DNA of 64,000 nucleotides from an uncultured bacterium (GCA_964516845.1 CAZEXP010000001.1:124665-188664), one strand, 5' to 3'; positions 27,475 through 54,027 are shown, numbered from the stretch's first letter. Notes: generated by a model from the letters alone, not told the origin. Numbers and translations are program-made.

Positions 27475-27475
27475 C

Positions 27476-30916: not shown

Positions 30917-30941
30917 AGCCGCGCTGAGCAGAGAGAGGGCT

Positions 30942-34084: not shown

Positions 34085-36499
34085 ATGGTGACGCCCCGAG
34101 TCCGCGCGTCGAAGAGGTCCGCGACCGGACCGCGAACAAACGAGTCCCAGCGCCTTGAGCAGGAGCCGATCCTGGGACGTCATGGAACGGCTTTCTGCGT
34201 GACCGTGATCGTTGTTGTGGCGCTCATCTTCTTCTACCGGGTTCTCTTTCTCGGCGAGATCCTGGCCGGGGGAGACGTTCTCGCCGCCGCGGCGATCTTC
34301 GATGACTACGCCCGGGAACGGATCGCTGGTGGATCGCTCCCCTTGTGGAACCCGTACATCTTCTCGGGAATGCCGTTCTTCGAGAGCATGACGTGGAACG
34401 GCGTGGTCTACCCGAGCTACTGGATCAGACACTTCATCGAGGCCATCCCCGGAGTCGAGCTTCCGCGCCTCACGTTCATCGTCCTGCACTACATGCTCGC
34501 CGGGATCGGCACGTTCGCCTATCTCAGGTCGAGGCGTGTGGGACACATCGGCGCGCTCGCGGGGGGACTGGCGTTCATGCTGTCGCCGCACCTCATCGGA
34601 CTGGCGGGCATCGGTCACGGCGGGAAGGTGCTCACCGGCGCCTACATCCCGCTGGTCCTCATGGCGGCCCATCGGGTCCTGGACACGGGGCAGCGACGCT
34701 GGCTGGGCCTGCTCGGACTCTTCGGAGGGCTGCAGTTCCTGGCGCGCCACGTTCAGGTGAGCTACTACACCTGGCTCGCTGTGGGCATCCTCATCGTCTG
34801 CTTCGCGGTGTCGGCGGCGAGAGAGAAGCGCGGCTGGGGCTTCATCGGAGGCAGAGCCGCCATGGTCATCGGCGGCGGCGTCCTCGCGGCCGCGGTCGCC
34901 GGGATCCTGCTCATTCCGCTCCAGAGCTACTCGCTGCTCTCGACGAGAGTCGCTGAATCGGGTGGCATGGGCTTCGAACAGGCCACGATGTGGTCGTTCC
35001 ATCCGAAGGAGCTTCTGACGTTCCTCGTCCCGTCGGCGTTCGGGATGGCCAACGAGACATACTGGGGACCGATGCCCTTCAACCAGGTCTCGCACTACGC
35101 GGGGTTCGTGGCTCTCGCTCTGGCGGTGGTCGCTCTCGGGACCAGACGGACGCGAACCGTTCGCTATCTCGGGATTCTCGCCGCGGTCTGTCTGGTGCTG
35201 AGCTTCGGGAAGTACGTCACGCCGCTCTACCGCGTCCTCTACACGGTGCTCCCCGGATTCAGTCGCTTCCGCGTGCCGGCGCTGTTCCTCCTGTTCGCCC
35301 AGTTCGCCATCGCCGCGCTTGCCGGACACGGCGTCTCCGCCATTCTTGGCGAGACCCGCGCGAGGATCGGGAACTGGAAGATATGGGCGGCGGCGGTGGC
35401 GGGCGTCGGGATACTGGTCGGCATCATCGTTGCAGCTTCCCGGGCCGGCGTCGAACAGAGCGCGACCGCGGCTCTGCTGTCGAAGCACGCGGGCGTGGCC
35501 CCCTCGGTGCTGAGACCGATCGCCGCGCAGGCCGCCCGCATCGCCGTCCGTGACACGGGGATCCTCATTACCTTCGCCGCAGCCACGGGGGTGGCGATCT
35601 TCGTGGCGTCGACAAGAAGGCTCGCCGGCTGGATCGGAGCACTGCTCCTCGTCGGTGTTCTCGTCTGGGACATCTGGCTCGTGGACGCGCGCTTCATGAA
35701 TCCGGAGCGAATGAGGCCGCTCGACAGCTACTACCCGCAGACGACGGCGGTACGATACCTCAAGCAGCAGGAGGGGTACTTCCGCATCGCGCCCCTGGGA
35801 GCCGATTTCGGCTCGAATGCGTGGATGTACCACCGGATCCAATCGATGGGCGGATACCATCCCGCGAAGCTCGGCTCGTACAACATGCTTCTCGACATCA
35901 TCGGCATCGCCGATCTGCGCTTGCTGGCAATCGCGAACGTCCGGTACGTTGTAGGACCCGAGCAGGAGCTCGGCCACCCCGCGTTCCGTATGGTCGCGCC
36001 CGGTGTCCACGAGTTCCTCGGGGTTCTCCCGCGGACGTTCCTGATCGGTGAGGCCCGGGAGGTCATGCCCGACGGCCGCGTGCTCGGGGAGATGCGAACG
36101 GACGGGTTCAATCCGGGCGCATACGCCATTGTCCAGGGCGAACTCCCGGGGCCGGTCCAATCGGCCGAGGGAGGAACGGCGGAGATCGTCTCCTACGAAG
36201 CCGAGAGGATCGTGATCGAGGCGAACGCCCCGCGACCTTGTCTTCTCTATCTCTCGGAGGTATACTATCCGAACGGCTGGAAGGCCTACGTAGATGGTGA
36301 GGAGACCGCCATTTACCGCACCAACTTCGCGTTCCGGTCAGTCTATCTCGCGTCCGGCGAGCATACGGTGGAGTTCGTCTATGAGCCGCCCTCGGTACGC
36401 GCCGGGCTCATCGTCACGCTGATGGGTCTCGCCGCCGTCACTCTGTTGATCATCCTCCCGAGGCGCAAGGGGAGAGAGCCGCAAGGAGCCGCTGCATGA
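34085..36499 (+). CDS. YfhO-family membrane glycosyltransferase (GT-C like)
   Basis: PLWNPYIFSGMPFF and LHYMLAGIGTFAYL are hallmark YfhO motifs. Large polytopic protein with a C-terminal periplasmic domain. Confidence 0.8.
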   Translation: MVTPRVRASKRSATGPRTNESQRLEQEPILGRHGTAFCVTVIVVVALIFFYRVLFLGEILAGGDVLAAAAIFDDYARERIAGGSLPLWNPYIFSGMPFFESMTWNGVVYPSYWIRHFIEAIPGVELPRLTFIVLHYMLAGIGTFAYLRSRRVGHIGALAGGLAFMLSPHLIGLAGIGHGGKVLTGAYIPLVLMAAHRVLDTGQRRWLGLLGLFGGLQFLARHVQVSYYTWLAVGILIVCFAVSAAREKRGWGFIGGRAAMVIGGGVLAAAVAGILLIPLQSYSLLSTRVAESGGMGFEQATMWSFHPKELLTFLVPSAFGMANETYWGPMPFNQVSHYAGFVALALAVVALGTRRTRTVRYLGILAAVCLVLSFGKYVTPLYRVLYTVLPGFSRFRVPALFLLFAQFAIAALAGHGVSAILGETRARIGNWKIWAAAVAGVGILVGIIVAASRAGVEQSATAALLSKHAGVAPSVLRPIAAQAARIAVRDTGILITFAAATGVAIFVASTRRLAGWIGALLLVGVLVWDIWLVDARFMNPERMRPLDSYYPQTTAVRYLKQQEGYFRIAPLGADFGSNAWMYHRIQSMGGYHPAKLGSYNMLLDIIGIADLRLLAIANVRYVVGPEQELGHPAFRMVAPGVHEFLGVLPRTFLIGEAREVMPDGRVLGEMRTDGFNPGAYAIVQGELPGPVQSAEGGTAEIVSYEAERIVIEANAPRPCLLYLSEVYYPNGWKAYVDGEETAIYRTNFAFRSVYLASGEHTVEFVYEPPSVRAGLIVTLMGLAAVTLLIILPRRKGREPQGAAA

Positions 36500-37209
36500 A
36501 GGTGATGGTCGTCGTCCCGACCTACAACGAGCGTGAGAACATCTCGAATCTGGTTCCCAGACTCCTTGGTCACGGTGAGCACATCAACCTGCTCGTCGTC
36601 GACGACGGATCGCCCGATGGCACCGGCCGGTATGCCGACGAGCTCGCGGCCGCGAATCCGCGCGTCCGGGTTCTTCACAGGCCGTCGAAGATGGGGCTTG
36701 GGTCCGCCTACGTCGCGGGCTTCAAGCTCGCGCTGACCACGGACGTGGACCGCATCGTCCAGATGGACGCCGATTTCTCGCATGACCCCGAGGTCATCCC
36801 GGACCTGCTCCACGAATCGGAGAGATACGATGTCGTTCTCGGGTCCCGCTACATCACCGGCGCGAACGTCGTCAACTGGCCGCTGCAGCGACTCTTCCTG
36901 AGCTATTTCGCCAACGTATACACACATCTGATCACGGGCCTGCCGCTCAGGGACTCCACGGGCGGGTTCAAATGCTTCCGGCGCGAGGTGCTCGAGGCGA
37001 TCGACCTCGATACGATCCGCTCCGACGGCTACTCGTTCCAGATCGAGGTCAACTTCAGGTGCTGGAGGCGAGGCTTCTCGATCCACGAGATCCCGATCGT
37101 GTTCGTCGACCGCCACTCCGGCACATCCAAGATGTCCCGCCGAATCGTCTGGGAGGCGACGTGGCTGGTGTGGCGACTGAGGCTCGAGCGCATCCTGCGA
37201 AGAAGATAG
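36496..37209 (+). CDS. Polyprenol/dolichol-phosphate mannosyltransferase-like GT2 (DPM1/Ppm1-like, soluble type)
   Basis: VVVPTYNERENI...VVDDGSPDGT...DADFSHDP...GFKCFRREVL. ATGA overlap with yfhO. Confidence 0.85.
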   Translation: MKVMVVVPTYNERENISNLVPRLLGHGEHINLLVVDDGSPDGTGRYADELAAANPRVRVLHRPSKMGLGSAYVAGFKLALTTDVDRIVQMDADFSHDPEVIPDLLHESERYDVVLGSRYITGANVVNWPLQRLFLSYFANVYTHLITGLPLRDSTGGFKCFRREVLEAIDLDTIRSDGYSFQIEVNFRCWRRGFSIHEIPIVFVDRHSGTSKMSRRIVWEATWLVWRLRLERILRRR

Positions 37210-39365
37210 CGGGGGACGGAGCGGAGCTCGATCTCTCGATCATCATCGTCGGGTACAACAGCGCCGAGCCGCTGGCGGCGTGCCTGCGATCGCTCGCGGA
37301 GTGCCGGGACATCGTGTCTCGAGAAGTCCTCGTCGTCGACAACGCATCGGCCGACGACACAGGAGAGATGGTCCGGCGCGACTTTCCCTGGGCTGAGTAC
37401 CACGAGAATGCGGCGAACGTCGGCCTGTCGCGCGCGGTCAACCGCGGCATCAGGGCATCGCGCGGACGGCACATCCTCGTTCTGAACCCGGACATCGAGG
37501 CGCGGCCCGGCTCGCTCGACGCACTGGTGGGATTCATGGATGCCACGCCCGGGGCGGGACTCGCGGGTGCGAAACTGATCAACACGGACGGCTCGCTTCA
37601 ACTCTCGTGCAGGGCGTTCTACACGTTCTGGACGCTGCTGCTGCGGAGGACGTTCCTCGGGAAGCTGTTCCGGAGGAGCGGGGCGATCCGACGACATCTG
37701 ATGCTCGACTACGACCACGAGTCCCCGCGTGAGGTGGACTGGGTTCTCGGAGCCTGCATGCTCGTTCGGCGGGCGGCCATGGCCGACGTCGGGGCGATGG
37801 ACGAGCGGTTCTTCCTGTACTTCGAGGACGTGGACTGGTGCTACCGGATGTGGCGCGGAGGTTGGAAGGTCTGGTACGTGCCGGACGCCGTGATGGACCA
37901 TCGCCACGCGCGCGCCAGCGCTCGGCCGGGCTTGAACAAGCTGCTGATCGCGCACCTCATCTCGCTCCTGCACTTCTATGAGAAGTGGGGAGGGGTCATC
38001 TACCGGATGAAGAAACACCGACGCATCCTCTTGACGGCGTTAAGCCTTCTGGCCGACCTCGTGGCTGTCAACGCCGGGTTCATTCTCGCCTATGCGCTGC
38101 GTTCGAGTCTGCGCGGCCTGCTTACGAAACCGCTCTTCGGTCTCGGGGTCTACGACACCTTTCTTATCTTCGCGAACATCGTGTTCATCCTCGTGTTCGC
38201 ATTCTTCGGTCTCTACGGCGGTCGGCGCGACCGCGAGACGGGCGCGGATGTCGCCTTCCGCGTGACACGGGCCGCCGTCGTGGCGGGCGTCGTGCTGATG
38301 GCGAGTACGTTCCTGACCTCCACAACGGTCTACTCGCGGCTTCTCGTCGGGGCTTTCTGCGTGATCGTCGTCCTGCTCGACATGGCCCTTCGGGGGGTTA
38401 TCCGGTGGGTACAGAACCAGGCCCGCGCGGGCAGGTTTGACCTCACGCGCGTGGCTGTCGTCGGCACCGGCCCCACGGCAACGCTCCTCGCCGAGCGTAT
38501 CGCCGCCGCCCCCGAGCTCGGGTACGATCTGGCGGGTCTGGTCTCCGAGCGTCCACGGGACCCGGGAGCGGGTGACCGGCTGGCGATCCCTGTCATCGGA
38601 AGTCTCGATGAACTGCCGGACCTCATCGAGCGACAGAGGATCGAGGAAATCATCTTCGCGGAGCCGGAGCTGTCGAGCACCGAGATCGCCGATTTCCTCA
38701 TTCGCGCCCGCCGGAGCACGGTCGACGTGAAGATGGTCTCCGACCTCACGAATCTGCTGACGCAACGCGCGCGCGTCGAGGAGTTCCTCGATGTTCCGAT
38801 CGTCGCCTTCGAGCGCGAGGCGCTCCTCGGAGCGCAAGCGGGTGTCAAGCGGGTCGCCGACCTGGTCGGAGCAGCGGCCCTGCTCGTGGTGTCGAGTCCC
38901 GTGCTCGCCGTGGCGGCGCTTGTCGCCGGAGCGGGCTCGCGGCGGAGTCTGTTCTCACGCGGACAGCGTGTCGGACTTGCGGAGCGGTCATTCGCCAAGT
39001 GGGGACTTCGGGAACAGGAGCCTCCCGGCGCGCTCCGTCGCTACGTCGAGCGGCACGGCCTCTCCCGGATGCCCGAACTCCTCAACGTCATCACGGGTGA
39101 GATGAGTCTCGTCGGCCCTGCACCCCTGACGGCGTCGGAGGCAACCGGGTGTACTGCGCGCGAGCGCGTGCGCTTCGACGCACGCCCCGGCGTCACCGGA
39201 CTGGCTCAGGTCGCATCAGCGGCCCACGCGGTGGGTGACGGCGGGATGGCGCTTGACGCCTACTACGTACAGAACTGGTCGCTGGGCGGAGATGTGCGGA
39301 TCATCATGCGGTGGTGGCTTCTGTGTCTGGGTGGCCGCTGCGCTCGGCGACACGAGGATGTGTGA
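37161..39365 (+). CDS. Fusion protein: N-terminal GT2 glycosyltransferase + C-terminal polyprenyl glycosylphosphotransferase (WbaP/PglC-type bacterial sugar transferase)
   Basis: GTG 37161 after RBS gggagg. GT2 block (IIIVGYNSAEPL...VVDNASADDT...LNPDIE). Then 4-5 TM helices (MKKHRRILLTALSLLADL...). C-terminal Bac_transf motif (PELLNVITGEMSLVGPAPL). One uninterrupted reading frame. Confidence 0.75.
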   Translation: MAGVATEARAHPAKKIAGDGAELDLSIIIVGYNSAEPLAACLRSLAECRDIVSREVLVVDNASADDTGEMVRRDFPWAEYHENAANVGLSRAVNRGIRASRGRHILVLNPDIEARPGSLDALVGFMDATPGAGLAGAKLINTDGSLQLSCRAFYTFWTLLLRRTFLGKLFRRSGAIRRHLMLDYDHESPREVDWVLGACMLVRRAAMADVGAMDERFFLYFEDVDWCYRMWRGGWKVWYVPDAVMDHRHARASARPGLNKLLIAHLISLLHFYEKWGGVIYRMKKHRRILLTALSLLADLVAVNAGFILAYALRSSLRGLLTKPLFGLGVYDTFLIFANIVFILVFAFFGLYGGRRDRETGADVAFRVTRAAVVAGVVLMASTFLTSTTVYSRLLVGAFCVIVVLLDMALRGVIRWVQNQARAGRFDLTRVAVVGTGPTATLLAERIAAAPELGYDLAGLVSERPRDPGAGDRLAIPVIGSLDELPDLIERQRIEEIIFAEPELSSTEIADFLIRARRSTVDVKMVSDLTNLLTQRARVEEFLDVPIVAFEREALLGAQAGVKRVADLVGAAALLVVSSPVLAVAALVAGAGSRRSLFSRGQRVGLAERSFAKWGLREQEPPGALRRYVERHGLSRMPELLNVITGEMSLVGPAPLTASEATGCTARERVRFDARPGVTGLAQVASAAHAVGDGGMALDAYYVQNWSLGGDVRIIMRWWLLCLGGRCARRHEDV

Positions 39366-39385
39366 GCCTGACAGGAGGTACTGAT

Positions 39386-40729
39386 ATGCACCGAGGGACT
39401 ATCGCGCTCATCGCCATCATCTTGTGTCTCGCGGGCTCCGCGTCCTCCGCGGACTGGACGTCTGTGAGCTTCCCTAACAATGCCAAGATCTGGGATATGG
39501 GGATAGACGGGAGCGTTCTCTGGTTCTCCACGCAGGGACAGGGGCTGGTCGGGTACGATGACGGGAGCTGGGTGACGCACACGCACAGCGACGGAGGGAT
39601 ACGGAGCGACAGCTGGAACTACGGGCTGCTCGTGAGCTCTTCCGGCGACAAATGGGTAACCCGCGACGGGAGCGAGACGGTCGACCGTGTCAGTGACAAC
39701 GGAACCTTCTCGTACAAGGACGACGACGTCTGGACCTACTACAGCTACCCGGAGCAGCTGGCGAACAGGCGCGTCTTCTCGTCCGCCGAGGACTCCGAGG
39801 GACGAGCGTGGTTCGGCATGCGAGATGAGAATCTGAGCCGGACCGGTATCCTCGAGCTGTTCATCGACAATTCGGACACGACCTCGGCCGACGATGAGTG
39901 GTTCCACTACGACAACGTGTGGACGCCCGACTCGACGAGCTTCGGCGGCGACGACGTTCGCACGCTCATGGTCGACGATCAGGACCGGCTCTGGATCGGA
40001 TACTACGGTTCGGGGATCGACCTCTGGGAGTACGGGAACCCGCGCGTCTTCGCGGACGACAGCTGGACGCACTTCGCCGAGGAGGACGGTCTGCCCGAGG
40101 ACGACATCCACACGTTCTGGCAGGGAAGCGACGGAACGATCTGGGCCGGGACGCTTGGCGGACTGGCAGCATATGATGAGCAGAGCGGCACCTGGACGGT
40201 CGTGTCCGGCCTTCCGGGGAGCCAGGCGCGCGCCGTCTCGGAGGACGCCCAGGGCCACATCTGGGTCGGAACGAACGACGGCGTCGCGATGCTCTACGCG
40301 AACCGGGCGGTCGCCTTCACCTACACGACCGAGGACGGTCTCGCGGACGAGCAGGTTGACCACATCGCTATCGACGTGTCCTCGGGCAACGTCTGGGCCG
40401 TCACGAAGGACAACGTGGCGGATGAAACGACGTTGAACGTGTTCCACTCGGGGATCGTCGAGGGAACGGGAAAGCTGTTCGTCTATCCGAACCCCTGGCG
40501 TGAGGGAGTTTCCGAGAATCAGATACAGCTCTACGGCGCGCCCGAGGGATCGCTCGTCGAGGTCTTCGATGTGACCGGTCAGAAGATGGTCGAACTCCCG
40601 CCGTCGGAACCGTACATCTGGGATTCGCTGGACGAGTCACTCAACGAGGTTCCGAGTGGTGTCTATCTGATCCGCGTCGAAGTACCGGGAGGCGAGGCGC
40701 AGATCGTCAAGCTGGCCATCATCAGATAG
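39386..40729 (+). CDS. Secreted beta-propeller (Reg_prop-like repeats) protein with T9SS-type C-terminal sorting domain
   Basis: RBS aggagg. Signal peptide. Repeated G-x-LW/IW-x-GT-x-GL-x-YD units. C-terminus LFVYPNPW...GVYLIRVEV...IVKLAIIR resembles the Por secretion-tail domain. Confidence 0.7.
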   Translation: MHRGTIALIAIILCLAGSASSADWTSVSFPNNAKIWDMGIDGSVLWFSTQGQGLVGYDDGSWVTHTHSDGGIRSDSWNYGLLVSSSGDKWVTRDGSETVDRVSDNGTFSYKDDDVWTYYSYPEQLANRRVFSSAEDSEGRAWFGMRDENLSRTGILELFIDNSDTTSADDEWFHYDNVWTPDSTSFGGDDVRTLMVDDQDRLWIGYYGSGIDLWEYGNPRVFADDSWTHFAEEDGLPEDDIHTFWQGSDGTIWAGTLGGLAAYDEQSGTWTVVSGLPGSQARAVSEDAQGHIWVGTNDGVAMLYANRAVAFTYTTEDGLADEQVDHIAIDVSSGNVWAVTKDNVADETTLNVFHSGIVEGTGKLFVYPNPWREGVSENQIQLYGAPEGSLVEVFDVTGQKMVELPPSEPYIWDSLDESLNEVPSGVYLIRVEVPGGEAQIVKLAIIR

Positions 40730-40784
40730 GCGCGGTGGAACAAGCGATCGAGCGTTGATACCCTGGACAACACGAGGATGATCC

Positions 40785-42248
40785 ATGAGCAACGAGGCTG
40801 GGAAGACACGAACACTGATCGTTGGCGCGGGCTCGGCCGGTGGAATGGTCGCGGAGGAGATGCGCCTCAGGCCCGAGCAGGGCTACGCTGCGGTCGGGTT
40901 CCTGGATGACGATACCGCGAAGATCGGGACGCAGGTCGCAGGACTTCCCGTACTCGGCAAGACCTCCGACCTCGTCCGGATCGTCAGGGACTCCGGGATC
41001 GATCAGGTCGTCATAGCGATCCCGTCCGCATCGGGATCCTCCATTCGGAGCGTGGTGGAGCTGTGTGAGGAAGCCGGAACGCCGGCGAAGATCGTTCCGG
41101 GGGTCTGGGAGATCATCCTCGGCGACGTCACGATCAGCCAGCTTCGGCAGGTGGTTCCCGAGGACCTGCTCGGGCGCGAGACGGTGGTGCTCGACTGCGA
41201 GGAGATGACCGGGTACCTGAGCGGTCGCACCGTCCTTATCACGGGAGCGGGGGGATCGATCGGATCGGAACTCGCGCGGCAGGTCGCCTCGTTCGGTCCC
41301 GCCAAGCTGATCATGATGGGTCGTGGTGAGAACAGCATCTACGAGATCGACCAGGAGATCGGCCAGGACTACCCGGACGTCGATCGTCACCTCGTCATCA
41401 GCAGCATCTCCGACCCGATGGCGGTCGAGGTGCTCTTCCGGGACGAGCATCCGGAGATCGTTCTCCACGCCGCGGCGCACAAGCATGTCCATCTGATGGA
41501 GGCCTTCCCGGACGAGGCCGTGAAGAACAACGTGATGGGAACGCGGATCCTCATCGACGCCGCCGTCCGCTACGGCGCCGACCGCGTCGTCATGCTGTCC
41601 ACGGACAAGGCCGTGCGACCCAGAGGCGTCATGGGCGCTTCGAAGCGTGTCGCGGAGTCGATCATGATCGAACGGGCCTCGCGGGGGAGCGCGACCAAGC
41701 TCATCGCCGTCCGGTTCGGCAACGTCCTGGGCAGCCGCGGGAGCGTCGTCCCGCTCTTCCGTCAGCAGATCAGTCACGGAGGTCCGGTGACCGTGACTCA
41801 CCCGGACGTCACACGGTACTTCATGACGATCCGCGAGGCCGCGATGCTCGTTCTCGAGGCGGGTCTCACGGGCCGGGGTGGGGAAATCTTCGTGCTCGAT
41901 ATGGGCGAACCCATGCGCATCGCGGACCTCGCCACGCACCTGATACGGCTCTCCGGGCTCGAGCCCGGCAGGGATATTGCTATTGAGTTCACGGGCCTGC
42001 GGCCGGGGGAGAAGCTCCATGAGGAGCTGTGGTACTCGGACGAGACCCTCCTTGAGACAGGCAGAAAGAAGGTGATGGTCGTCCAGTCTCCGAAGGACGC
42101 CGTCGTCCCGGACCTCTGGGACCGCGTCAGGCGGCTCGAGGAGTTCGCAGAGCACTGCGACCGGGTCGGCGTCATCCGGGAGCTTGCCGACATCTTCCCC
42201 GACATGAAGGTAAGGACGGGCCATGACGACGAAGACGCCGGCCGCTGA
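40785..42248 (+). CDS. UDP-sugar 4,6-dehydratase (CapD/PglF/WbpM family)
   Basis: Two Rossmann regions. VLITGAGGSIGSELARQ and downstream SDR catalytic motifs. Confidence 0.85.
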   Translation: MSNEAGKTRTLIVGAGSAGGMVAEEMRLRPEQGYAAVGFLDDDTAKIGTQVAGLPVLGKTSDLVRIVRDSGIDQVVIAIPSASGSSIRSVVELCEEAGTPAKIVPGVWEIILGDVTISQLRQVVPEDLLGRETVVLDCEEMTGYLSGRTVLITGAGGSIGSELARQVASFGPAKLIMMGRGENSIYEIDQEIGQDYPDVDRHLVISSISDPMAVEVLFRDEHPEIVLHAAAHKHVHLMEAFPDEAVKNNVMGTRILIDAAVRYGADRVVMLSTDKAVRPRGVMGASKRVAESIMIERASRGSATKLIAVRFGNVLGSRGSVVPLFRQQISHGGPVTVTHPDVTRYFMTIREAAMLVLEAGLTGRGGEIFVLDMGEPMRIADLATHLIRLSGLEPGRDIAIEFTGLRPGEKLHEELWYSDETLLETGRKKVMVVQSPKDAVVPDLWDRVRRLEEFAEHCDRVGVIRELADIFPDMKVRTGHDDEDAGR

Positions 42249-43422
42249 GGGCGGCACGCCGGTCAGAGACAACTTCCTGGCGTTCGCGCGCCCTTGCATC
42301 GAGGCGGCGGACATTGAGCTCGTGGTCGAGACGCTGCGGTCCGGGTGGCTCACCGTAGGACCCAGGACACACGACTTCCAGCGCCGAGTAGCCGAGTACG
42401 TCGGCGTCGAGTCCGCGGCCGCGCTGAACTCCTGCACCGCAGGGCTGCATCTCGCCATGGTGGCGCTGGGCATCGGTCCCGGTGATGAGGTCATCCTGCC
42501 GACGATCGACTTCGTGTCCGGAGCGAACACGGTCTGCCATCTTGGGGCCACACCGGTACTCGTCGACGTTGACGCCGAGACGATCTGCGTCACTCCGAAC
42601 ATATTCGAAGCCGCCATCACGGACCGGACGCGTCTGCTGATGCCGGTCCACTTCGCCGGAAGACCGTGCGACATGGACGGCATCATGGAGCTCGCCCGGA
42701 CCCGCGGCATCAAAGTGCTCGGAGACGCCGCGCACGCCATCGGCGCCGACATCGGCGGACGACGCATCGGGAGCATGGCCGACGCGACGTCCTTCAGCTT
42801 CTACGTCACCAAGGGGATCACGACTGGTGAGGGCGGCGCCGTCACATCGACGGACCCGGACCTCACGGCGCGGATCGCGCTACTCGGGCTCCATGGCATG
42901 AGCAGCGACGCCTGGAAGCGCTACAGCGAGAGAGGGCCGTGGTACTACGAAGTGCTCGAAGCAGGGTATAAGTGCAACATGAGCGACATGCAGGCAGCGC
43001 TGGGCCTGTCGCAGATCGATCGCGTGGACACGTTCCGTGAGCGTCGTCGCGAGATCGCCGACGCCTACACCGCCGCGTTCGCGCAGGACCCGAGCATCAC
43101 GCCGCCCGCCGCGTACCTCGACGGACATCACGCGTGGCATCTCTATCCGATCCAGATCGACGTGGACGCTCTCTCGATCGACCGCGACCAGTTCATCAAA
43201 CAGCTGGTCGAGGAAGGTATCGGGGTCAGCGTTCACTTCATTCCGGTTCACTACCATCCGTACTACCGCAAGCTGCTCGGCCTGGAGCGTGGCAGCTTCC
43301 CTGTGGCGGAACACTACTTCGAACGCGCCGTCTCGCTCCCCATCTATCCCTCGATGACTTCGGGCGATGTGGACGACGTGATCGAGGCGGTGCGCAAGCT
43401 GACCTCGTATCACAGGAGGTAG
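42223..43422 (+). CDS. DegT/DnrJ/EryC1/StrS-family PLP-dependent sugar aminotransferase
   Basis: GDEVILPTIDFVS and the PLP-lysine region SFSFYVTKGITTGEGG. Confidence 0.85.
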   Translation: MTTKTPAAEGGTPVRDNFLAFARPCIEAADIELVVETLRSGWLTVGPRTHDFQRRVAEYVGVESAAALNSCTAGLHLAMVALGIGPGDEVILPTIDFVSGANTVCHLGATPVLVDVDAETICVTPNIFEAAITDRTRLLMPVHFAGRPCDMDGIMELARTRGIKVLGDAAHAIGADIGGRRIGSMADATSFSFYVTKGITTGEGGAVTSTDPDLTARIALLGLHGMSSDAWKRYSERGPWYYEVLEAGYKCNMSDMQAALGLSQIDRVDTFRERRREIADAYTAAFAQDPSITPPAAYLDGHHAWHLYPIQIDVDALSIDRDQFIKQLVEEGIGVSVHFIPVHYHPYYRKLLGLERGSFPVAEHYFERAVSLPIYPSMTSGDVDDVIEAVRKLTSYHRR

Positions 43423-43427
43423 CCGTC

Positions 43428-44408
43428 GTGGAGTACACGGTCACCTCACATGTGGATGCAAGGTCGTGGGACGACCTCGTCGCGGGGGACCGTTCAGCGA
43501 GCTTCTTCCAGAGCCGCGTCTGGTCCGAGGTGCTCTCGAGCACACTCCCGGACCACGAGCCGCTCTTCGTCGCGGCGCATCGTGGTGACGAACTCGTCGC
43601 CGGGATTCCCGTCATCCGGCGCAGCCGCGGTCCCGTGATGGTCGTCGAATCGATGCCGTTCGGAACCTACGGCGGCGTGCTCACCACCGACAGGGCGCCG
43701 TCGCAGGCCGCCGCGGAGCTCGTCCTTGCGTTGCTGGACGCCGTCGACGGGATCACGGTCGGGCAGATCCGCATCGTGGATTTCAACGGACGACTCGCGG
43801 ACGCTTGCGACGGATTCGAGCCCGTGACAAGCGAGGCGCAGGTGCTCGATCTCGACCGCCCGTACGATGATGTCTGGGCGGGATTCCGCTCGTCGGTGCG
43901 CAACAAGGTCCGCAAGGCCGAGAAGGCCGGCGTGACGATTCGCGAGGCGCGCGGGACGGATGACTTTCATGCGTATCATCGGCTCCTCGAGGAATGCTCC
44001 GAACGTTGGGGAACGACCAACTCGTTTGATGAGGACTTCTTCGCCGCCCTCGCCGAGAGCGGCAGCGACGCGGTCCAGATGTGGCTCGCGGAGTACGATG
44101 GAGAGATCATAGGCGGAGATCTGAACTTCGTCACTGCTACCTCGGTGTTCAACTGGGGCAATGTCTCGCACCGGGAGTCCGCCAGCCTCGGCACGGTCCC
44201 GCTCCTTCATGCGAACGCCATCGAGGACGGTTGTCGCCGCGGACTGACGACGTACAATCTCGGCGGAAGCGGCGGGATCGACGCCGTCGCCAGGTTCAAG
44301 TCGGCATTTGGAACGAGGTGTGTTCCGTACACCGAGTACGTGCTCGAGAAGGGATGGATGAAGCTCGGGAAGCGTCTCAGGGGACGCATCGAAGGAGACG
44401 CAGCGTGA
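43428..44408 (+). CDS. FemAB/BioF2-like GNAT-fold acyltransferase
   Basis: GTG 43428 with RBS aggagg 8 nt upstream. FemAB-family-like length and pattern (NKVRKAEKAGV...YHRLL...YNLGGSGG). Family call is tentative. Confidence 0.55.
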   Translation: MEYTVTSHVDARSWDDLVAGDRSASFFQSRVWSEVLSSTLPDHEPLFVAAHRGDELVAGIPVIRRSRGPVMVVESMPFGTYGGVLTTDRAPSQAAAELVLALLDAVDGITVGQIRIVDFNGRLADACDGFEPVTSEAQVLDLDRPYDDVWAGFRSSVRNKVRKAEKAGVTIREARGTDDFHAYHRLLEECSERWGTTNSFDEDFFAALAESGSDAVQMWLAEYDGEIIGGDLNFVTATSVFNWGNVSHRESASLGTVPLLHANAIEDGCRRGLTTYNLGGSGGIDAVARFKSAFGTRCVPYTEYVLEKGWMKLGKRLRGRIEGDAA

Positions 44409-45727
44409 ACAGCCGAGCCAGAACGCTCCTCATCATCGCGGTCGCCATCCACGCCGTCATGCTCGCGTCGCTCGTCCACCCTGGACACTTCCTCAACCCG
44501 CTCTTCCCGGAGGCCGTGCACACCATCGCGACGGTCTACGATGAAGGAGTGGCGGTCGGCACACTGGAGGGCGGCGGCCTCGGCGCCGATTTCTTCGCGT
44601 TCTACCAGGCCGGCAGGTATGTCCTCAATGGTGATGACATCTACCGACGCCCGATGGACGATCCCGAGCGCGTCGTGCCGTATGGCTATTTCTATCGCTA
44701 CCTCCCCTTCGTCGCGTACACGCTCGGGGTCGCGTCCAACGCGGTTCCCCCGTGGACGGCGTACTGGCTCTGGGTGCTCCTTGTCGAACTCGTGCTCCTC
44801 TGGTGCATCCTGCTGACGTATCGCGCCGTGCGGGACGGTTGGCTCTTCGCGATGCTGGCGACGATGTGGCTCGTCTTCACGCCGTTCTACATGGAGCAGT
44901 ACATGGGTCAGCTCTCGTTCGTAATGGGCGCGCTGATCTTCGCCATGGTACTGGCCCACGGCCGCGGTCGGGTGAAGCGGTTCGACTGGCTCTGGATCGC
45001 GAGCGTGGTCATCAAGCACATGACCGTCCTGTTCATCCCGATCATGGTCCGCCTGAGGAGATTCGGGACCGTCGCGCTTGCGGGGCTCCTTCTCGGACTG
45101 ACCGCCGTGCCGTATCTGCTGCTTCGCGACAGCGGTGTCGGCGACTTCACGCATGACAATTTCAATCTGACACTCTACCCGTACTCCGGGAATCTCGGCG
45201 CTCTCGCGCTGGTGATGGTGCTCAAGGCGCGCCTCTTGCCGATGGCGTCGGAGATCGGTTTCCAGCTGGGGCCGATCCGCATGACGATCACGCGGATGGC
45301 GATACTCGGGACGATGGCGGTTCCGACACTCGCGGCCCTCTGGGCGACGTTCCGAAGGCGTCCGTTCGATCTCGTGGAGTCGGTCAGCCTCTGGACGATG
45401 GTCTACTTCTTCGTGTTCCGGGAGATATGGGAGTACCACTATGTGCTCCTGATACCGATCTTCGTGCTGCTCTACATGAAGACACGCGCGCGCGTCCTCT
45501 GGTGGATGTACGCGCTGGCGGCGATGCCGACGCTGTTCATTCTCTACGACGTCCCGGCCGCCAAGAGTCCTGAGGTGTACTGGAGCGCGTGGGAACACAT
45601 CCTGAACCACGGCATGAAGGTTGCACCGCTGGTCTGGCTGTTCGTCTGGGTCGCGTGGGGCTTCTACCGGCGCCATGTCACACGGACGGAGCGAGGATCG
45701 ACCAACGATCTGGCGGTCGTTCTCTAG
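44405..45727 (+). CDS. DUF2029 / GT87-like polytopic membrane glycosyltransferase (polyprenyl-P-sugar dependent, GT-C fold)
   Basis: GTG 44405 in GTGA overlap. Periplasmic-loop motif DFFAFYQAGR and about 10 TM helices. Confidence 0.6.
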   Translation: MNSRARTLLIIAVAIHAVMLASLVHPGHFLNPLFPEAVHTIATVYDEGVAVGTLEGGGLGADFFAFYQAGRYVLNGDDIYRRPMDDPERVVPYGYFYRYLPFVAYTLGVASNAVPPWTAYWLWVLLVELVLLWCILLTYRAVRDGWLFAMLATMWLVFTPFYMEQYMGQLSFVMGALIFAMVLAHGRGRVKRFDWLWIASVVIKHMTVLFIPIMVRLRRFGTVALAGLLLGLTAVPYLLLRDSGVGDFTHDNFNLTLYPYSGNLGALALVMVLKARLLPMASEIGFQLGPIRMTITRMAILGTMAVPTLAALWATFRRRPFDLVESVSLWTMVYFFVFREIWEYHYVLLIPIFVLLYMKTRARVLWWMYALAAMPTLFILYDVPAAKSPEVYWSAWEHILNHGMKVAPLVWLFVWVAWGFYRRHVTRTERGSTNDLAVVL

Positions 45728-45758
45728 CACGTCGCCGTGAAACGACTGGAGTCGAGTG

Positions 45759-46871
45759 ATGCGGATCGCGTATCTCTCCATCGGGGGACACATTCACACC
45801 GAGAGGTGGCTGAGACACTTCGTCAACGCGGGACACGACGTCCACCTGATGACGGTCCAGCCCGCGCCGATCGACGGTGTCACCGTTCACGACATCCGGA
45901 CCGGTATTCCGATCAAACCGCTCCACTATGCCGTCGCGCTCGCCAGGGTCAAACGGATCCTGCGAACGATCAAGCCCGATCTGCTCCACACGCACTTCCT
46001 TACCGGATACGGGTACTGGGGAGCCTTCTCGGGCTTCCATCCGTTCATCATGACCGTCTGGGGCGACGATGTGTACGTCACACCGCACGAGACGAAGCTC
46101 AAGGGCTCGCTGGCGAGAGCCGTGCTCGGTCGCGCCGATCTCATCACGGGGGATTCCGAGGACATCCTGACTCACGTCGTGCGGATGGGCGCCGACCCGG
46201 ATATCTGCCGCGTGGTTCAGTGGGGCGTCGATCTCGACCGCTTCCGGCCCGACGCGGACGGCGGGGTCAGGAGGATGCTGGGCATCCCCGAGGACGCGCC
46301 CGTGGTGATCAGTATCAGGAGCTTCACGCAGGCCTACTACAACATCGACACCATCGTTCGCACTGCTCCCGGTGTTCTCGAGAAGCGCCCCGACACGCAC
46401 TACATCATCGCGGGGAACGAGGGAGACGACTCGGAGCTCCGCGCGCTCGCAGATTCTCTCGGCCTCGATGATCGCATCCACTTCGTAGGACGCATCCCGC
46501 ACGAGGAGCTTCCCGGATACCTGGCGACATCCGACGTGTTCCTGACGGTTCCATCGGTCGATGCCACACCGGTCTCTCTGCTCGAGGCCATGGCGTGCGG
46601 CGTGGCGGTGATCATCTCCAACCTCGAGTCCGCCATGGAGTGGGTGACCGACGGCGAGAACGGTCTCGTCGTCAGGCCCGCCGAACGGCGGGAGCTCGAA
46701 GACGCGATTCTGAAGCTCATCGGCGACCCCGCGGCCCGCGAGCGCTTCGCCGCCATCGGCGTCCGGAAGGTGCGCGAGGGCGCCGACCACGCCCGGCACA
46801 TGGACCGGATGGAGCGGCTCTGCGAGGAACTCATCGCCGGGGGAAAGCCGCGAGCCGGAGGAACATCGTGA
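45759..46871 (+). CDS. Glycosyltransferase family 4 (GT-B)
   Basis: C-terminal GT4 signature (VSLLEAMACGVAVIISNLESAMEWVTDGENGL). GTG 45756 or ATG 45759 are both possible starts. Confidence 0.8.
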   Translation: MRIAYLSIGGHIHTERWLRHFVNAGHDVHLMTVQPAPIDGVTVHDIRTGIPIKPLHYAVALARVKRILRTIKPDLLHTHFLTGYGYWGAFSGFHPFIMTVWGDDVYVTPHETKLKGSLARAVLGRADLITGDSEDILTHVVRMGADPDICRVVQWGVDLDRFRPDADGGVRRMLGIPEDAPVVISIRSFTQAYYNIDTIVRTAPGVLEKRPDTHYIIAGNEGDDSELRALADSLGLDDRIHFVGRIPHEELPGYLATSDVFLTVPSVDATPVSLLEAMACGVAVIISNLESAMEWVTDGENGLVVRPAERRELEDAILKLIGDPAARERFAAIGVRKVREGADHARHMDRMERLCEELIAGGKPRAGGTS

Positions 46872-47818
46872 CGACCGTCAGCGTGGTCATTCCCACGTTT
46901 GGCAAGCGTCCGGTCCTCGAACGCACGCTGGAGTCCCTGCGTGTCCAGACGTACCCGACCGAGCTGACAGAGATCGTCGTGGTTGACGACCACTCGGACG
47001 ACGATACGTCGGAGTACCTCCGGAGCCTCTCGCTTCCGCAGCGCCTTGTCGCGATCCGGCACGATGAGAATCTCGGGCGCGCGGCGGCGCGCAACACGGG
47101 CGTCCGCTCGGCCACGGGAGAGCTGATCGTGTTCGTGGATGACGACATGCTCTGCGAGCCCGATCTCATCGAACAGCACGTGGTCTTCCACCAGGATCAC
47201 CCACGGTCTGTCGCTATCGGCGACGCGGTGCAGGCCCCCGAACTCGGCCACTCGACGGCGCTTTCGTACCTCGATGAGATGGGCGTCCACAAACACGAGT
47301 CCGGCTCGCGGGTGCCGGCGCGGTACTTCGTCACGAACAACAGCTCCGTCGAACGCCAATCCATACTCGACGTCGGTCTCTTCGACGAGAGCTTCCGCAA
47401 CTACGGATTCGAGGATACGGAGCTGGCTTTCCGGCTCGAGGACAACGCGGGTCTCTCGACCTGGTACTGCGGGGAGGCGCGCGCCCTCCACGTGCATCCG
47501 CAGTCGTTCGACGACATCCTCGACAAGAGGATCGAGAACGCGCCGCCGCTGCGACACCTCCTCGCGAAGCACCCGGATCGGGCGGGGGAGATGATGGTGG
47601 ACGTCCTGCTGCCCGTTGCCGCCGGTGACTCGGCCGCGCTCAGGGTTCGGAAGCTCCTGGTGGCCGTCGCCACGAACCGGCTCTTCTACCGGACGGTCCG
47701 CGCCGTTGCCAGGACCATCTGGCTTCGTGGACTCTCGCTCAAGGTGATGACCTACCTGATCGCCTGCCAGTACCGCGCGGGGCTCGCGCGGCCCCCACAT
47801 ACTCAGGAACGCCCCTGA
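46868..47818 (+). CDS. Glycosyltransferase family 2
   Basis: GTG 46868 with RBS ggaggaa in GTGA overlap. VSVVIPTFGKRPVLERTLESL...VVDDHSDDDT...VFVDDDM. Confidence 0.75.
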   Translation: MTTVSVVIPTFGKRPVLERTLESLRVQTYPTELTEIVVVDDHSDDDTSEYLRSLSLPQRLVAIRHDENLGRAAARNTGVRSATGELIVFVDDDMLCEPDLIEQHVVFHQDHPRSVAIGDAVQAPELGHSTALSYLDEMGVHKHESGSRVPARYFVTNNSSVERQSILDVGLFDESFRNYGFEDTELAFRLEDNAGLSTWYCGEARALHVHPQSFDDILDKRIENAPPLRHLLAKHPDRAGEMMVDVLLPVAAGDSAALRVRKLLVAVATNRLFYRTVRAVARTIWLRGLSLKVMTYLIACQYRAGLARPPHTQERP

Positions 47819-48055: not shown

Positions 48056-48091
48056 GCCGCCCCCGGCTCTCTACGAGAGCCGGGGGCGGCC
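48056..48091 (+). terminator. 16-bp perfect GC hairpin (GCCGCCCCCGGCTCTC-tacg-GAGAGCCGGGGGCGGC), putative terminator of the glycan operon
   Basis: Read in sequence. Followed by cTTTCC and then directly by the BMC promoter. Confidence 0.45.
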
Positions 48092-48205: not shown

Positions 48206-48880
48206 ATGTTCGTGAGCGACGTCACACGGATCGCGGATGAGGTGTTGAGGCGGCTTCAGCGGGAGGCGGGCAACCCGCCTCGCGCGCAGGAGCGTCTCGG
48301 GGAAGCGGGAGTCTCGATCCCCGTCGCAGTCAGCGCCCGTCACGCCCACGTCTCGCGGACCGTACTCGATCGTCTCTACGGGGAGGGCTACGCGCTCTCG
48401 AAGAAGAGCGACCTCGGACAGCCCGGGCAGTTCTCAGCCGAGGAGACGGTCACGGTCGTCGGACGCTCCCTGCGCGCCATCGAGGGCGTCCGCATCCTGG
48501 GTCCCGTGAGAACGTACACGCAGGTCGAGATGTCGCGTGCGGACGCCGTCCGTCTGGGCATCGACCCGCCGATCCGCCGCTCCGGTGATCTCGCGGGGAG
48601 TGCGCCGTTGACGCTGGTCGGCCCGCACGGCGCCGTCACCCTCAAGGAGGGTGGTATCCGCGCGACGCGCCATCTCCACATGACCCCGCGCGACGCGGAG
48701 GTTCATCGCGTAGCCGGCGGCGAGCTGGTCCGCGTCCGGTTCAGCGGCCCCGCGGCGCTCGTCCTCGAGAACGTGATGGTCAACATTTCCGAGGACGGGG
48801 CTCTCGAGCTTCATCTTGACACGGACAATGCGGGCGCGGCGGACGTGCGCGGCCCGATGATGGTGAGCATTCTGAAGTAA
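48206..48880 (+). CDS. pduL: Phosphate propanoyl/acyltransferase PduL-type (PTAC) with N-terminal amphipathic extension
   Basis: Two PduL repeats with VSARHAHVS and [11 protein letters not shown] histidine motifs. Start ATG 48206 or GTG 48212; the upstream part of the track ORF contains the terminator and promoter. Confidence 0.8.
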
Positions 48881-48995
48881 CGAAAGGCGTCACCACCCGC
48901 GCGGGTGGAGCGTCCCAGAGACGAGTGGGTCAGGGACGCCGGCAGCGAGACGCAAACGAGAGGCCCGCAACCGGGCCGGACGAGGGGGTGCGCAA

Positions 48996-49265
48996 TTGCC
49001 GGGTACGGCACTTGGAATGGTCGAGACCCGAGGTGTGATCGGTCTCATTGAGGCAGCCGACGCGATGGTGAAGACCGCCAACGTGACCCTCACGCGCTAT
49101 GAGCGGACAGGTGGCGGGTACGTCGCCATCTTCGTTCGGGGTGACGTGGGCGCTGTGAAGGCGGCGGTCGCCGCCGGAGTCGCTGCCGCGACCAAGGTCG
49201 GGGAACTGGTGTCACAGCACATCATCCCGGCCCCGCACGAATCGCTCGAGGAGATTCTGCTGTAG
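48996..49265 (+). CDS. BMC-H shell protein (PduA/EutM/CcmK-type)
   Basis: [28 protein letters not shown]...[12 protein letters not shown] is the canonical Pfam BMC domain. TTG start with RBS gaggggg. Confidence 0.85.
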
Positions 49266-49360
49266 TCTGACGGGAAGAACACAACGGCACTGGAAACGTG
49301 TGTCGCCATGGGTCCGCAACGGAGCCCGGGGCGACCGAACGCGAGACGCGGGAGGAGAAC

Positions 49361-49651
49361 ATGGGCGAGGCCCTCGGAATGATCGAGACCAGAGGTTTCG
49401 TCGGGATGGTCGAAGCATCCGACGCCATGGTCAAGGCTGCCAAGGTCAAGCTGGTTGGATACGAGAAGGTCGGAGGCGGCTACGTGACCGCCATGGTGCG
49501 CGGTGATGTGGCCGCGGTGCGCGCTGCGGTCGACGCGGGAACCGCGGCGGCCAGCAAGGTCGGGGAACTCATCTCCACGCACGTCATCCCCAGTCCGCAC
49601 ACGAGCCTTGAAGACGTCCTGCCGATCGGCAAGACCGCGAAGTCGAAGTAG
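49361..49651 (+). CDS. BMC-H shell protein, second paralog
   Basis: ATG 49361 with RBS gggaggag. [31 protein letters not shown]...[12 protein letters not shown]. Confidence 0.85.
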
Positions 49652-49652
49652 C

Positions 49653-49943
49653 ATGAACATCGGCCGCGTGGTCGGGACGGTTGTCTCGACACAGAAGGAC
49701 GAGAAGCTGGTCGGTACGAAGCTTCAGATCGTCAAGCAGCTGGGGCTCGACTGCGGCGAGACCGGTTCGTTCGTTGTCGCGATCGACGCCGTGGGCGCAG
49801 GACAGGGCGAGGTGGTCCTGTACGCAAGCGGCAGCTCGGCGCGGCAGACGCCGATCACCAAGGACCGGCCGGCTGACGCCGTGATCATGGCCATCGTGGA
49901 CTCGATCGAGGTCGACGGCGCCACCACGTACGAGAAGAAGTAG
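49653..49943 (+). CDS. BMC-P vertex protein (EutN/PduN/CcmL family), copy 1
   Basis: MNIGRVVGTVVSTQKDEKLVGTKLQIV...AVGAGQGEVVL. 96 aa. Confidence 0.85.
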   Translation: MNIGRVVGTVVSTQKDEKLVGTKLQIVKQLGLDCGETGSFVVAIDAVGAGQGEVVLYASGSSARQTPITKDRPADAVIMAIVDSIEVDGATTYEKK

Positions 49944-49993
49944 CGCGCGACGCATCGGGAGCCACCGACGCCTCCTCGGGGAGTTCTTCGCTC

Positions 49994-51418: not shown

Positions 51419-51431
51419 GGGACATGCGACC

Positions 51432-52760: not shown

Positions 52761-52832
52761 CGCGCACCGCACGCGTCGACCTCGTAGAGGACACGACGTC
52801 ATGGATGACGCGACGTCGGAGAGGATGAACGA

Positions 52833-53423: not shown

Positions 53424-53455
53424 CGCGTCGCCACGCCTGCGGCGAAGGAGGAGCG

Positions 53456-53749
53456 GTGCATTTCGGCAGGGTCATCGGCTCGGTCTGGGCGACTCAGAAG
53501 GTCCCGACGCTCAAGGGCGCGCGGATGCTGATCGTCCAGCCTCTGACGCATACGCTCGAGGAGAAAGGGCAACCGCTCGTAGCCGTCGACACCGTCGAGG
53601 CTGCGCCCGGACAGATCATCTACTTCGTGATGTCGCGCGAGGCGTGCAAGGCGATGGAGGAGCGCTTCAACCCGGTCGACGCGGCGATCGTCGGCATCGT
53701 CGATGAGATATCACTGGCCGATGCAGCGATCGACGGGGGGGACGTCTGA
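53456..53749 (+). CDS. BMC-P vertex protein (EutN/CcmL family), copy 2
   Basis: GTG start with RBS ggaggag. (M)HFGRVIGSVWATQKVPTLKGARMLIV. Confidence 0.8.
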   Translation: MHFGRVIGSVWATQKVPTLKGARMLIVQPLTHTLEEKGQPLVAVDTVEAAPGQIIYFVMSREACKAMEERFNPVDAAIVGIVDEISLADAAIDGGDV

Positions 53750-53750
53750 C

Positions 53751-54023: not shown

Positions 54024-54027
54024 CGTC

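Follow-up and report, generated by a model that had tools for sequence, protein, structure and literature searches.

A PglF/DegT/FemAB-Type Gene Module Beside a PorZ-like Gene Outside Bacteroidota: A Candidate Route to N-Aminoacyl Amino Sugars

Introduction

Amino sugars that bear an amino acid serve as a chemical handle through which secreted proteins are attached, by sortase-like enzymes, to glycans of the cell surface. In Porphyromonas gingivalis and Tannerella forsythia, type IX secretion system (T9SS) cargo is amide-linked to 2-N-seryl- or 2-N-glycyl-3-N-acetyl uronic sugars, and swapping vimA swaps the amino acid, Ser or Gly, on the amino sugar (PMC7468200). VimA leaves an amine free, to which T9SS cargo is attached by PorU, and is partnered by the GT4 enzyme VimF and a WbaP-type initiating transferase; the amine that it modifies is exposed by the deacetylase VimE (CE4) on a 2,3-diamino uronic acid made by WbpA, WbpB, WbpE, and WbpD. 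WbaP, GtfC, GtfF, and VimF have been proposed to assemble a linker pentasaccharide in which the aminoacyl sugar comes last (PMC13086638), and PorZ is reported to deliver anionic lipopolysaccharide (A-LPS) to the PorU sortase (PMC8545088). Wbp/Vim is the only route to such a sugar that has been worked out genetically. Here, we examine a three-gene module at positions 40785-44408 of a 64,000-nt stretch of DNA from an uncultured Eisenbacteria-type genome (GCA_964516845.1 CAZEXP010000001.1:124665-188664; "the window" denotes this whole stretch). The module is best described as a putative variant of VimA/FemAB-type glycan aminoacylation on a PglF/DegT line, genomically tied to a PorZ-like T9SS component outside Bacteroidota.

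Several other described systems resemble parts of this module. T9SS cargo of Prevotella intermedia carries an N-alanyl-deoxyhexose as linking sugar, and this species lacks VimA and VimE; the pathway that moves alanine onto the deoxyhexose was called unknown, and several linking-sugar pathways may exist (PMC11969387). Orf11/Sba18 uses Gly-tRNA to place glycine on an amino sugar (PMC12945691). Ordinary O-antigens, such as that of Escherichia coli O123, likewise contain aminoacylated 4-amino-4,6-dideoxy sugars, and in an E. coli nonulosonic-acid pathway a putative "alanyltransferase", Lea3, is listed after a dehydratase and an aminotransferase (PMC7685785). VimA itself matches the family model TIGR03019, and VimA-related genes are found in PEP-CTERM loci, including one of Desulfovibrio vulgaris (PMC7468200).

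Results

Three codirectional plus-strand genes, overlapping or abutting, fill the module: position 40785 is the start of a CapD-like dehydratase gene, 44408 is the final base of the stop codon of a Fem-like gene, and a DegT-family gene lies between them (Table 1). The original prediction, made from the DNA alone, had placed a 4,6-dehydratase, a DegT aminotransferase, and a 326-aa FemAB/BioF2-like protein within exactly these bounds; its coordinates, its three family assignments, and the length of the third protein all hold. The first two genes overlap by 26 nt. The Fem-like gene starts with GTG, 5 nt past the DegT stop, with a ribosome-binding site (caggagg) ahead, and a weak promoter-like site lies at 40755-40782, ahead of the CapD-like gene.

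The CapD-like protein matches PF02719 (Polysacc_synt_2) with E 4.8e-109 and has a CoA_binding_3 Rossmann domain at its N-terminus, where no transmembrane segment or membrane anchor is predicted. Its best solved relative is Campylobacter jejuni PglF (5bju; E 1.3e-77, 265 bits), and CapD, CapE, and PseB-type FlaA1 entries in the Protein Data Bank (PDB) score well below this, at 135-153 bits. Because these scores lie far nearer PglF than CapD, CapE, or FlaA1, we read the protein as a putative PglF-like UDP-N-acetylglucosamine (UDP-GlcNAc) 4,6-dehydratase, with the retaining stereochemistry taken from the known PglF. The DegT protein matches PF01041 (DegT_DnrJ_EryC1) with E 1.1e-122, and among solved structures it comes closest to two C4 aminotransferases, ArnB (305 bits) and perosamine synthase (252 bits). 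It approaches the equivalog models of PseC and ArnB without reaching their cut-offs, scoring 391 bits against the PseC model of NCBIfam (cut-off 423.5). As originally predicted, no PglD-type partner turned up: no Hexapep or left-handed-beta-helix acetyltransferase was found in any of the window open reading frames (ORFs) scanned, in which the sole PglD_N match is the Rossmann N-domain of the CapD-like protein.

The third protein exceeds the gathering cut-offs of three Pfam families, namely PF13480 Acetyltransf_6 (68.7 bits, cut-off 22), PF02388 FemAB (40.7 bits, cut-off 24), and PF04339 FemAB_like (31.5 bits, cut-off 27). Searched as a single sequence against the PDB, its best match is Sba18 (9wqy), an "aminoacyl-tRNA-dependent peptide synthase" (E 3.5e-4). 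A profile built from 50 homologues retrieved, at E <= 0.01, aminoacyl-tRNA-dependent Fem enzymes exclusively: Staphylococcus aureus FemX (3.9e-23), Sba18 (3.7e-19), Sbb17 (1.3e-18), Weissella viridescens FemX (~1e-15), and FemA (3.5e-7). In the alignments, F290-K291 of the Fem-like protein falls on the catalytic F304-K305 pair of W. viridescens FemX, and both Sba18 and S. aureus FemX have FK there. R158, R162, and K291 are invariant in the 50 homologues, and F290 is at least 90% conserved; R158 and R162 belong to an R..vR.A motif common to S. aureus FemX and Sba18. With the FemAB thresholds passed and F290-K291 kept, the protein does not have the profile of an ordinary acetyl-CoA GNAT devoid of FemAB features.

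The AlphaFold2 model of the Fem-like protein (predicted local distance difference test score, pLDDT, 93; predicted template modeling score, pTM, 0.89) consists of two tandem GNAT domains that make up one fold. All of the top 20 Foldseek matches are aminoacyl-tRNA-dependent; Sba18 and Sbb17, in complex with the amino sugar streptothrisamine, rank first, followed by FemX, FemA, and then aminoacyl-phosphatidylglycerol synthases (MprF). The canonical GNAT pyrophosphate-binding motif is absent from the sequence as read by eye. Although acidic overall (isoelectric point 4.9), the protein groups its conserved basic residues on two helices, 154-166 and the C-terminal 308-315, an arrangement in the model that is compatible with the tRNA-binding helix of FemX without proving such a role. 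By sequence and predicted fold, the protein appears to group only with aminoacyl-tRNA-dependent transferases (FemX, FemA, and Sba18/Sbb17, then MprF), and its donor is most likely an aminoacyl-tRNA. The profile, the predicted fold, and the FemX-type Phe-Lys pair favor the aminoacyl over the acetyl option that had been raised for the amino sugar.

In the pathway that we propose, the PglF-like enzyme would convert UDP-GlcNAc to UDP-2-acetamido-2,6-dideoxy-hexos-4-ulose, and the DegT enzyme would aminate C4 to give UDP-2-acetamido-4-amino-2,4,6-trideoxyhexose. The Fem-like enzyme, replacing a PglD-type acetyltransferase, would then place an amino acid on the C4 amine, most likely from aminoacyl-tRNA, yielding a 4-N-aminoacyl sugar with a free alpha-amino group. 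Strong family evidence speaks for the first two steps, and the third draws on fold, motif, and synteny; we hold the three steps, as stated, with moderate confidence. The sugar would next be added, probably by a conserved GT4 enzyme, to an undecaprenyl-linked oligosaccharide begun by a WbaP-type enzyme, with possible periplasmic decoration by GT-C enzymes using a polyprenyl-phosphate sugar; together with the GT2 enzymes, these neighbors would complete a conserved glycan of the cell envelope. We infer these last two steps, and a role in T9SS anchoring, from context. The analysis shows directly to which families the genes belong, the predicted fold, the conservation of the catalytic Lys, and the syntenic gene order, whereas the reaction order, the acceptor, aminoacyl-tRNA as donor, which amino acid is transferred, and what the glycan does are inferred.

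Comparison with the Vim pathway reveals both shared and divergent features. VimA and the Fem-like protein are both GNAT-type and have TIGR03019 (FemAB family, XrtA/PEP-CTERM-associated) as best NCBIfam model, which matches residues 13-309 of the Fem-like protein to positions 2-290, nearly its full length. The two proteins are linked indirectly, via this shared model and via the alignment to D. vulgaris FemAB described below. In the window, a GT4 gene follows the Fem-like gene, a WbaP-type transferase gene precedes it, and a PorZ-like T9SS gene adjoins the module, a set that resembles the Vim pathway at the level of family. Unlike the VimE-exposed amine of the uronic acid, the amine in the window would come from the PglF-like dehydratase and DegT on a 6-deoxy sugar, and the organism lies outside Bacteroidota, unlike the hosts of the Vim pathway. 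Deacetylase genes, Wbp genes, and exosortase/PEP-CTERM components were looked for and not found among the window ORFs scanned. The linking sugar of P. intermedia and the predicted window product are of the same chemical type, an N-aminoacyl amino-6-deoxyhexose, a likeness of chemistry alone; unlike the former, the window product would carry a 2-acetamido group if made from UDP-GlcNAc.

The first two steps would be those of the C. jejuni PglF-PglE-PglD pathway to di-N-acetylbacillosamine, a PglF-like dehydratase followed by a DegT-family C4 aminotransferase, whereas the third enzyme is a Fem-like double GNAT in the window and the left-handed-beta-helix PglD in C. jejuni. The window dehydratase, unlike that of the PglF pathway, has no predicted membrane anchor, and among solved structures the aminotransferase is nearer ArnB and Per than PglE or PseC. 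Sba18/Sbb17 (9wqy, 9wqx, 9wqw), the best match both in the single-sequence search and in Foldseek (E 2e-18), aminoacylates the amine of the amino sugar streptothrisamine; it does so in Streptomyces antibiotic biosynthesis, on an acceptor that is not a nucleotide sugar, and is 19% identical to the Fem-like protein. FemX (W. viridescens, S. aureus) and FemA share only 14-18% identity with it and serve peptidoglycan, whereas the window gene lies in a glycan operon and its product is without the coiled-coil insertion of the FemA/FemB type. We rejected a FemX role in peptidoglycan on the basis of this operon context.

Next, we scanned related loci, taking one genome per species and a 30-sequence alignment of the subfamily and sorting the loci by the genes upstream of Fem. 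The order CapD-DegT-Fem is found in 27 independent metagenome-assembled loci, with Fem identity to the window protein running from 78% down to 29%; because the order recurs in so many independent loci, the arrangement is not due to chance. DegT-Fem without a visible CapD gene accounts for 5 loci, two of which are short of upstream sequence. In another 18 loci, from Zixibacteria, Ignavibacteria, and other Eisenbacteria, a PorZ-like gene is directly followed by Fem and usually then by GT4. None of these upstream genes is present in 11 loci, which include Krumholzibacteria orthologues, and 7 loci with too little upstream sequence could not be classified. One Zixibacteria locus (L064) reads Lnt, PorZ-like, Fem, GT4, GT4, GT2, and then a convergent C25 peptidase. 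Because distant relatives keep PorZ-like/Fem/GT4 without them, the CapD-DegT pair and the GT87-like gene look like insertions into an older cassette. A rough neighbor-joining tree, which carries no support values, places the DegT-linked Fem proteins in two clades apart from the PorZ-direct ones, as expected if acceptor specificity tracks the amine-supplying genes.

The window-type subfamily is small and its superfamily very large, because few close relatives stand against many thousands of distant ones. A word-indexed search found ~36 close Fem relatives at 41-100% identity, followed by a gap to ~26%. An exhaustive search with a hidden Markov model returned 16,712 cluster representatives at E <= 1e-3, of which 503 lie at <= 1e-30 and only ~eleven exceed 330 bits. 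Natural fusions occur among these matches, pairing Fem with GT4, with an S-adenosylmethionine (SAM) methyltransferase, or with a second Fem in tandem (P0189, P0212, P0158, P0203, P0214). A word-indexed search with an Ignavibacteria Fem protein returned 6 proteins, none from Bacteroidota.

A tblastn survey of annotated plasmids added 71 records at 23-31% identity. On a Haladaptatus sp. megaplasmid (NZ_CP119783), a Fem-like "GNAT family N-acetyltransferase" gene lies divergently beside genes for a dTDP-glucose 4,6-dehydratase, a thymidylyltransferase, a glycosyltransferase, and DegT. Haladaptatus salinisoli (NZ_CP085330) has the order GT2, polysaccharide deacetylase, Fem-like, GT4, which mirrors vimE-vimA-vimF. 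These haloarchaeal loci point to amino-acid-bearing sugars in archaeal surface glycans. A Natronococcus megaplasmid also holds a Fem-like gene labeled "GNAT family N-acetyltransferase". On plasmid pDV of D. vulgaris Hildenborough (6112-9615), the order is XrtA polysaccharide deacetylase, FemAB family, DegT, GT2; the DegT-family protein is unusually long (538 aa), and an ATP-grasp gene follows the GT2 gene. The window subfamily aligns to the pDV FemAB protein over 279 columns (hhalign 99.6%, E 3e-24) with the same conserved motifs. The adjacency of DegT and Fem-like genes recurs independently in Haladaptatus and pDV and, since the Haladaptatus, H. salinisoli, and pDV loci all show it, a Fem-like gene beside one for an amine-generating enzyme (DegT or deacetylase) is a recurrent pattern. 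The pDV gene, a TIGR03019 PEP-CTERM FemAB between a polysaccharide deacetylase and DegT, lies in a locus tied to protein sorting, whereas the sorting system that the neighborhood of the window gene suggests is the T9SS. A PEP-CTERM association of the window module was rejected, as no Xrt gene is present among the window ORFs scanned.

Directly upstream of CapD-DegT-Fem, the window carries a PorZ-like gene. Its product scores 64 bits against the best NCBIfam model, NF052228 T9SS_PorZ (cut-off 260), and 34.7 bits against the T9SS type A sorting domain TIGR04183 (cut-off 23). In distant loci, the PorZ-like protein encoded directly upstream of Fem has ~725-745 aa. A profile of ten ~740-aa relatives is colinear with P. 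gingivalis PorZ (5m11; 33-736 against 13-758, E 9.6e-53); this entry, "PG93", has been identified as PorZ (PMC5121618). The match came from the family profile only, and single-sequence PDB searches with the PorZ-like proteins and a C25 peptidase recovered neither PorZ nor PorU. The window protein aligns to the C-terminal half of the ~740-aa family (columns 357-740; hhalign 99.8%, E 1.7e-28). Of the two seven-bladed propellers and C-terminal domain of PorZ, colinear with 5m11, it therefore covers only the second propeller and the sorting domain, the first propeller being missing. Because the alignment is limited to this half of the family, we assign it as a shortened PorZ-like protein rather than a full PorZ.

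In L064, the convergent gene at the end of the cassette (11096-13435, minus strand) encodes a C25 peptidase of 779 aa; it bears a T9SS sorting domain and, among NCBIfam models, matches the PorU sortase best (65 bits, under cut-off). Such a PorU-like C25 peptidase adjoins the cassette in four loci only (L064, L066, L068, and L055), from Zixibacteria and Ignavibacteria. Among the window ORFs, we looked for PorU, PorV, and other core T9SS genes and found none, and a literature search for a T9SS in Eisenbacteria was without result. A FadL/TodX-family outer-membrane protein encoded at 57193-58524 on the minus strand matches BamG (82 bits) and the PorV/PorQ family (44 bits), both under cut-off; it may be a barrel of the T9SS shuttle type or have no connection to that system.

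Discussion

The PorZ-like neighborhood suggests, without proving, that the module product is a sugar handle that anchors T9SS-secreted proteins. Tentatively, the operon product would be a T9SS linking sugar. In such a pathway, possible for Eisenbacteria and related candidate phyla of the Fibrobacteres-Chlorobi-Bacteroidetes (FCB) group, a 4-N-aminoacyl-2-acetamido-2,4,6-trideoxyhexose would be added as the terminal residue by the GT4 enzyme, the PorZ-like protein would present the sugar to a PorU-type sortase, and cargo would become amide-linked through the free amine of the amino acid.

Several observations weigh against the proposed aminoacylation of the DegT product. The match to TIGR03019 reaches 71.9 bits, far under its cut-off of 260.35, and PF13480 also holds proteins of unknown donor. 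A search for a tRNA gene close to the locus gave none within the window. Three loci have CapD-Fem without DegT and the 18 PorZ-direct loci have no CapD or DegT within 7 kb; a tie between the Fem-like enzyme and a DegT product is therefore not obligatory. The Krumholzibacteria orthologues, the closest outgroup at 40-42% identity, stand alone with no sugar genes nearby (L027, 4041-5102; L032, ~7013-7942), their neighbors being genes for a methyltransferase and a nucleoside transporter. In loci L001-L003, Fem diverges faster from the window protein (48-51% identity) than its neighbors CapD (64-74%), DegT (67-70%), and GT4 (68-75%), which could reflect shifting specificity or relaxed constraint. 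To our knowledge, no study has established which donor VimA itself uses, and our literature search returned no paper linking VimA to aminoacyl-tRNA. The swap study does not address the VimA donor and cites an earlier description of VimA as a putative acetyl-CoA transferase (PMC7468200). As a separate observation, one of the Krumholzibacteria loci, L027, encodes an 827-aa protein with a T9SS sorting domain upstream of Fem.

It is also possible that the aminoacylated sugar is a mere residue of an O-antigen, exopolysaccharide, or protein glycan and that the PorZ-like gene is adjacent through a shared envelope function. The O123 antigen offers a precedent, haloarchaea, a group without a T9SS, carry dehydratase/DegT/Fem-like loci, and the window itself shows no core T9SS gene, a FadL-like protein that matches the PorV family weakly, and a PorZ-like protein without its first propeller. 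Against this, Eisenbacteria, Zixibacteria, and Ignavibacteria keep the PorZ-like/Fem/GT4 order even where Fem identity falls to 21-30%, the C25 peptidase with a T9SS sorting domain sits convergently at the cluster end in four loci, and VimA, the sole functionally studied relative, makes a T9SS linking sugar (PMC7468200).

We consider it unlikely that the Fem-like enzyme is instead an acyl-CoA-dependent N-acyltransferase that replaces PglD, which would make the product a common di-N-acylated sugar of the bacillosamine type. In favor of this reading, the Pfam family that matches most strongly bears the name Acetyltransf_6, the earlier report on VimA points the same way, no PglD-type enzyme was found among the scanned window ORFs to cap the amine, and CoA-using tandem GNATs do exist, lower in the fold lists; the profile matches, the top Foldseek ranks, and the conserved Phe-Lys pair point to an aminoacyl-tRNA-dependent enzyme. 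That the Fem-like enzyme aminoacylates another acceptor (the amine of a lipid-linked oligosaccharide, a deacetylated sugar, or a non-glycan), CapD-DegT being a later, independent insertion, fits the older and wider PorZ-like/Fem/GT4 cassette, the loci without CapD or DegT, the CapD-only and stand-alone cases, and the relatives adjoining polysaccharide deacetylases, a VimE-like supply of amine, but it is quite improbable given that in the window lineage CapD-DegT sits exactly between the PorZ-like gene and Fem in translationally coupled genes, that DegT-linked Fem genes form their own clades, that no deacetylase was found among the window ORFs scanned, and that the DegT amine would stay free without a capping enzyme.

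If the module does make a 4-N-aminoacyl linking sugar, it would provide the enzymes that have been missing for linking sugars of the P. intermedia type, the N-aminoacyl-deoxyhexoses, and T9SS attachment chemistry would predate Bacteroidota and extend beyond them. The locus would offer a compact three-enzyme alternative to Wbp/Vim, consisting of a dehydratase, an aminotransferase, and a Fem-like transferase, with substrates accessible by PglF/PglE chemistry. Because the superfamily is very large and its genes recur, in bacteria as in haloarchaea, beside those for DegT or a deacetylase, a single biochemical assignment would annotate many proteins now labeled "GNAT family N-acetyltransferase".

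Genomic Surroundings

The module lies inside a ten-gene plus-strand envelope-glycan operon (34085-47818), a context that, like the PorZ-like link to the T9SS, goes beyond what the original prediction had covered (Table 1). The YfhO-like gene is syntenic in L001-L003 and many further loci and overlaps the following GT2 gene by 4 nt. This GT2 protein has AglJ, PgfS, and a dolichyl-P hexose transferase as best NCBIfam matches, all under cut-off. The GT2-WbaP/WcaJ fusion scores 225 bits against TIGR03025 (cut-off 295), and the last GT2 protein scores 171 bits against the EpsD model NF041875, again under cut-off. The start of the GT87-like gene overlaps the Fem stop codon (GTGA), and a gene of equal length was called on a Logan contig.

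Table 1. Genes of the envelope-glycan operon and the hairpin that follows it, in window coordinates
Feature	Position	Strand	Notes
YfhO-like polytopic membrane protein (GT-C type), operon gene 1	34085-36499	+	PF09586 E 3.3e-14
GT2, polyprenyl-phosphate sugar synthase-like (DPM/GtrB/PgfS-like)	36496-37209	+	PF00535 E 9.8e-31
GT2 fused to WbaP/WcaJ-type polyprenyl-phosphate glycosylphosphotransferase (initiating)	37170-39365	+	PF00535, PF13727, PF02397 Bac_transf
PorZ-like secreted protein	39386-40729	+	447 aa; signal peptide, one Reg_prop beta-propeller, T9SS type A sorting domain
Putative PglF/CapD-type UDP-GlcNAc 4,6-dehydratase	40785-42248	+	487 aa; PF02719, PglF 5bju
DegT-family pyridoxal phosphate aminotransferase; predicted C4 amination of a nucleotide-linked 4-keto-6-deoxy sugar	42223-43422	+	399 aa; PF01041
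FemX/VimA-like double-GNAT transferase, predicted amino-sugar aminoacyl transferase	43428-44408	+	326 aa; sequence, profile, fold
GT87-like polytopic membrane glycosyltransferase (GT-C)	44405-45727	+	440 aa; PF09594 E 6.4e-9
GT4 glycosyltransferase, conserved Fem partner	45756-46871	+	PF00534 E 3.3e-33
GT2 glycosyltransferase (EpsD-like), last operon gene	46868-47818	+	PF00535 E 2.1e-31
Terminator-like hairpin	48056-48090	+	16-bp stem; between glycan operon and microcompartment locus

A bacterial microcompartment (BMC) locus (48206-54828, plus strand) lies directly downstream of the operon. It encodes a PduL-like phosphotransacylase, two BMC-H shell proteins, EutN-type vertex proteins, an aldehyde dehydrogenase, an RnfC/Nuo51-like flavoprotein, a tandem-BMC shell protein, and a class II aldolase. 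In contigs labeled Candidatus Eisenbacteria, at 42-78% Fem identity, synteny covers both this locus and the glycan operon.

A second envelope-glycan operon (23151-32729, plus strand) may function in lipopolysaccharide-core assembly. Its genes encode a flippase-like LPG_synthase_TM protein, an NAD epimerase/dehydratase, GT2, GT4, and GT2 enzymes, two Phosphodiest/sulfatase-like proteins, and a GT9 heptosyltransferase-like enzyme. Four sizeable ORFs, at 4506-5885 (minus), 7536-9290 (plus), 21307-22050 (minus), and 22225-22707 (minus), have coding-like GC content at third codon positions and match no Pfam family; the one at 7536-9290 shows faint similarity to EpsG-type tyrosine kinases. Elsewhere, the window holds a radical SAM/SPASM gene (20057-21331), SelA (6218-7645), and a riboflavin operon.

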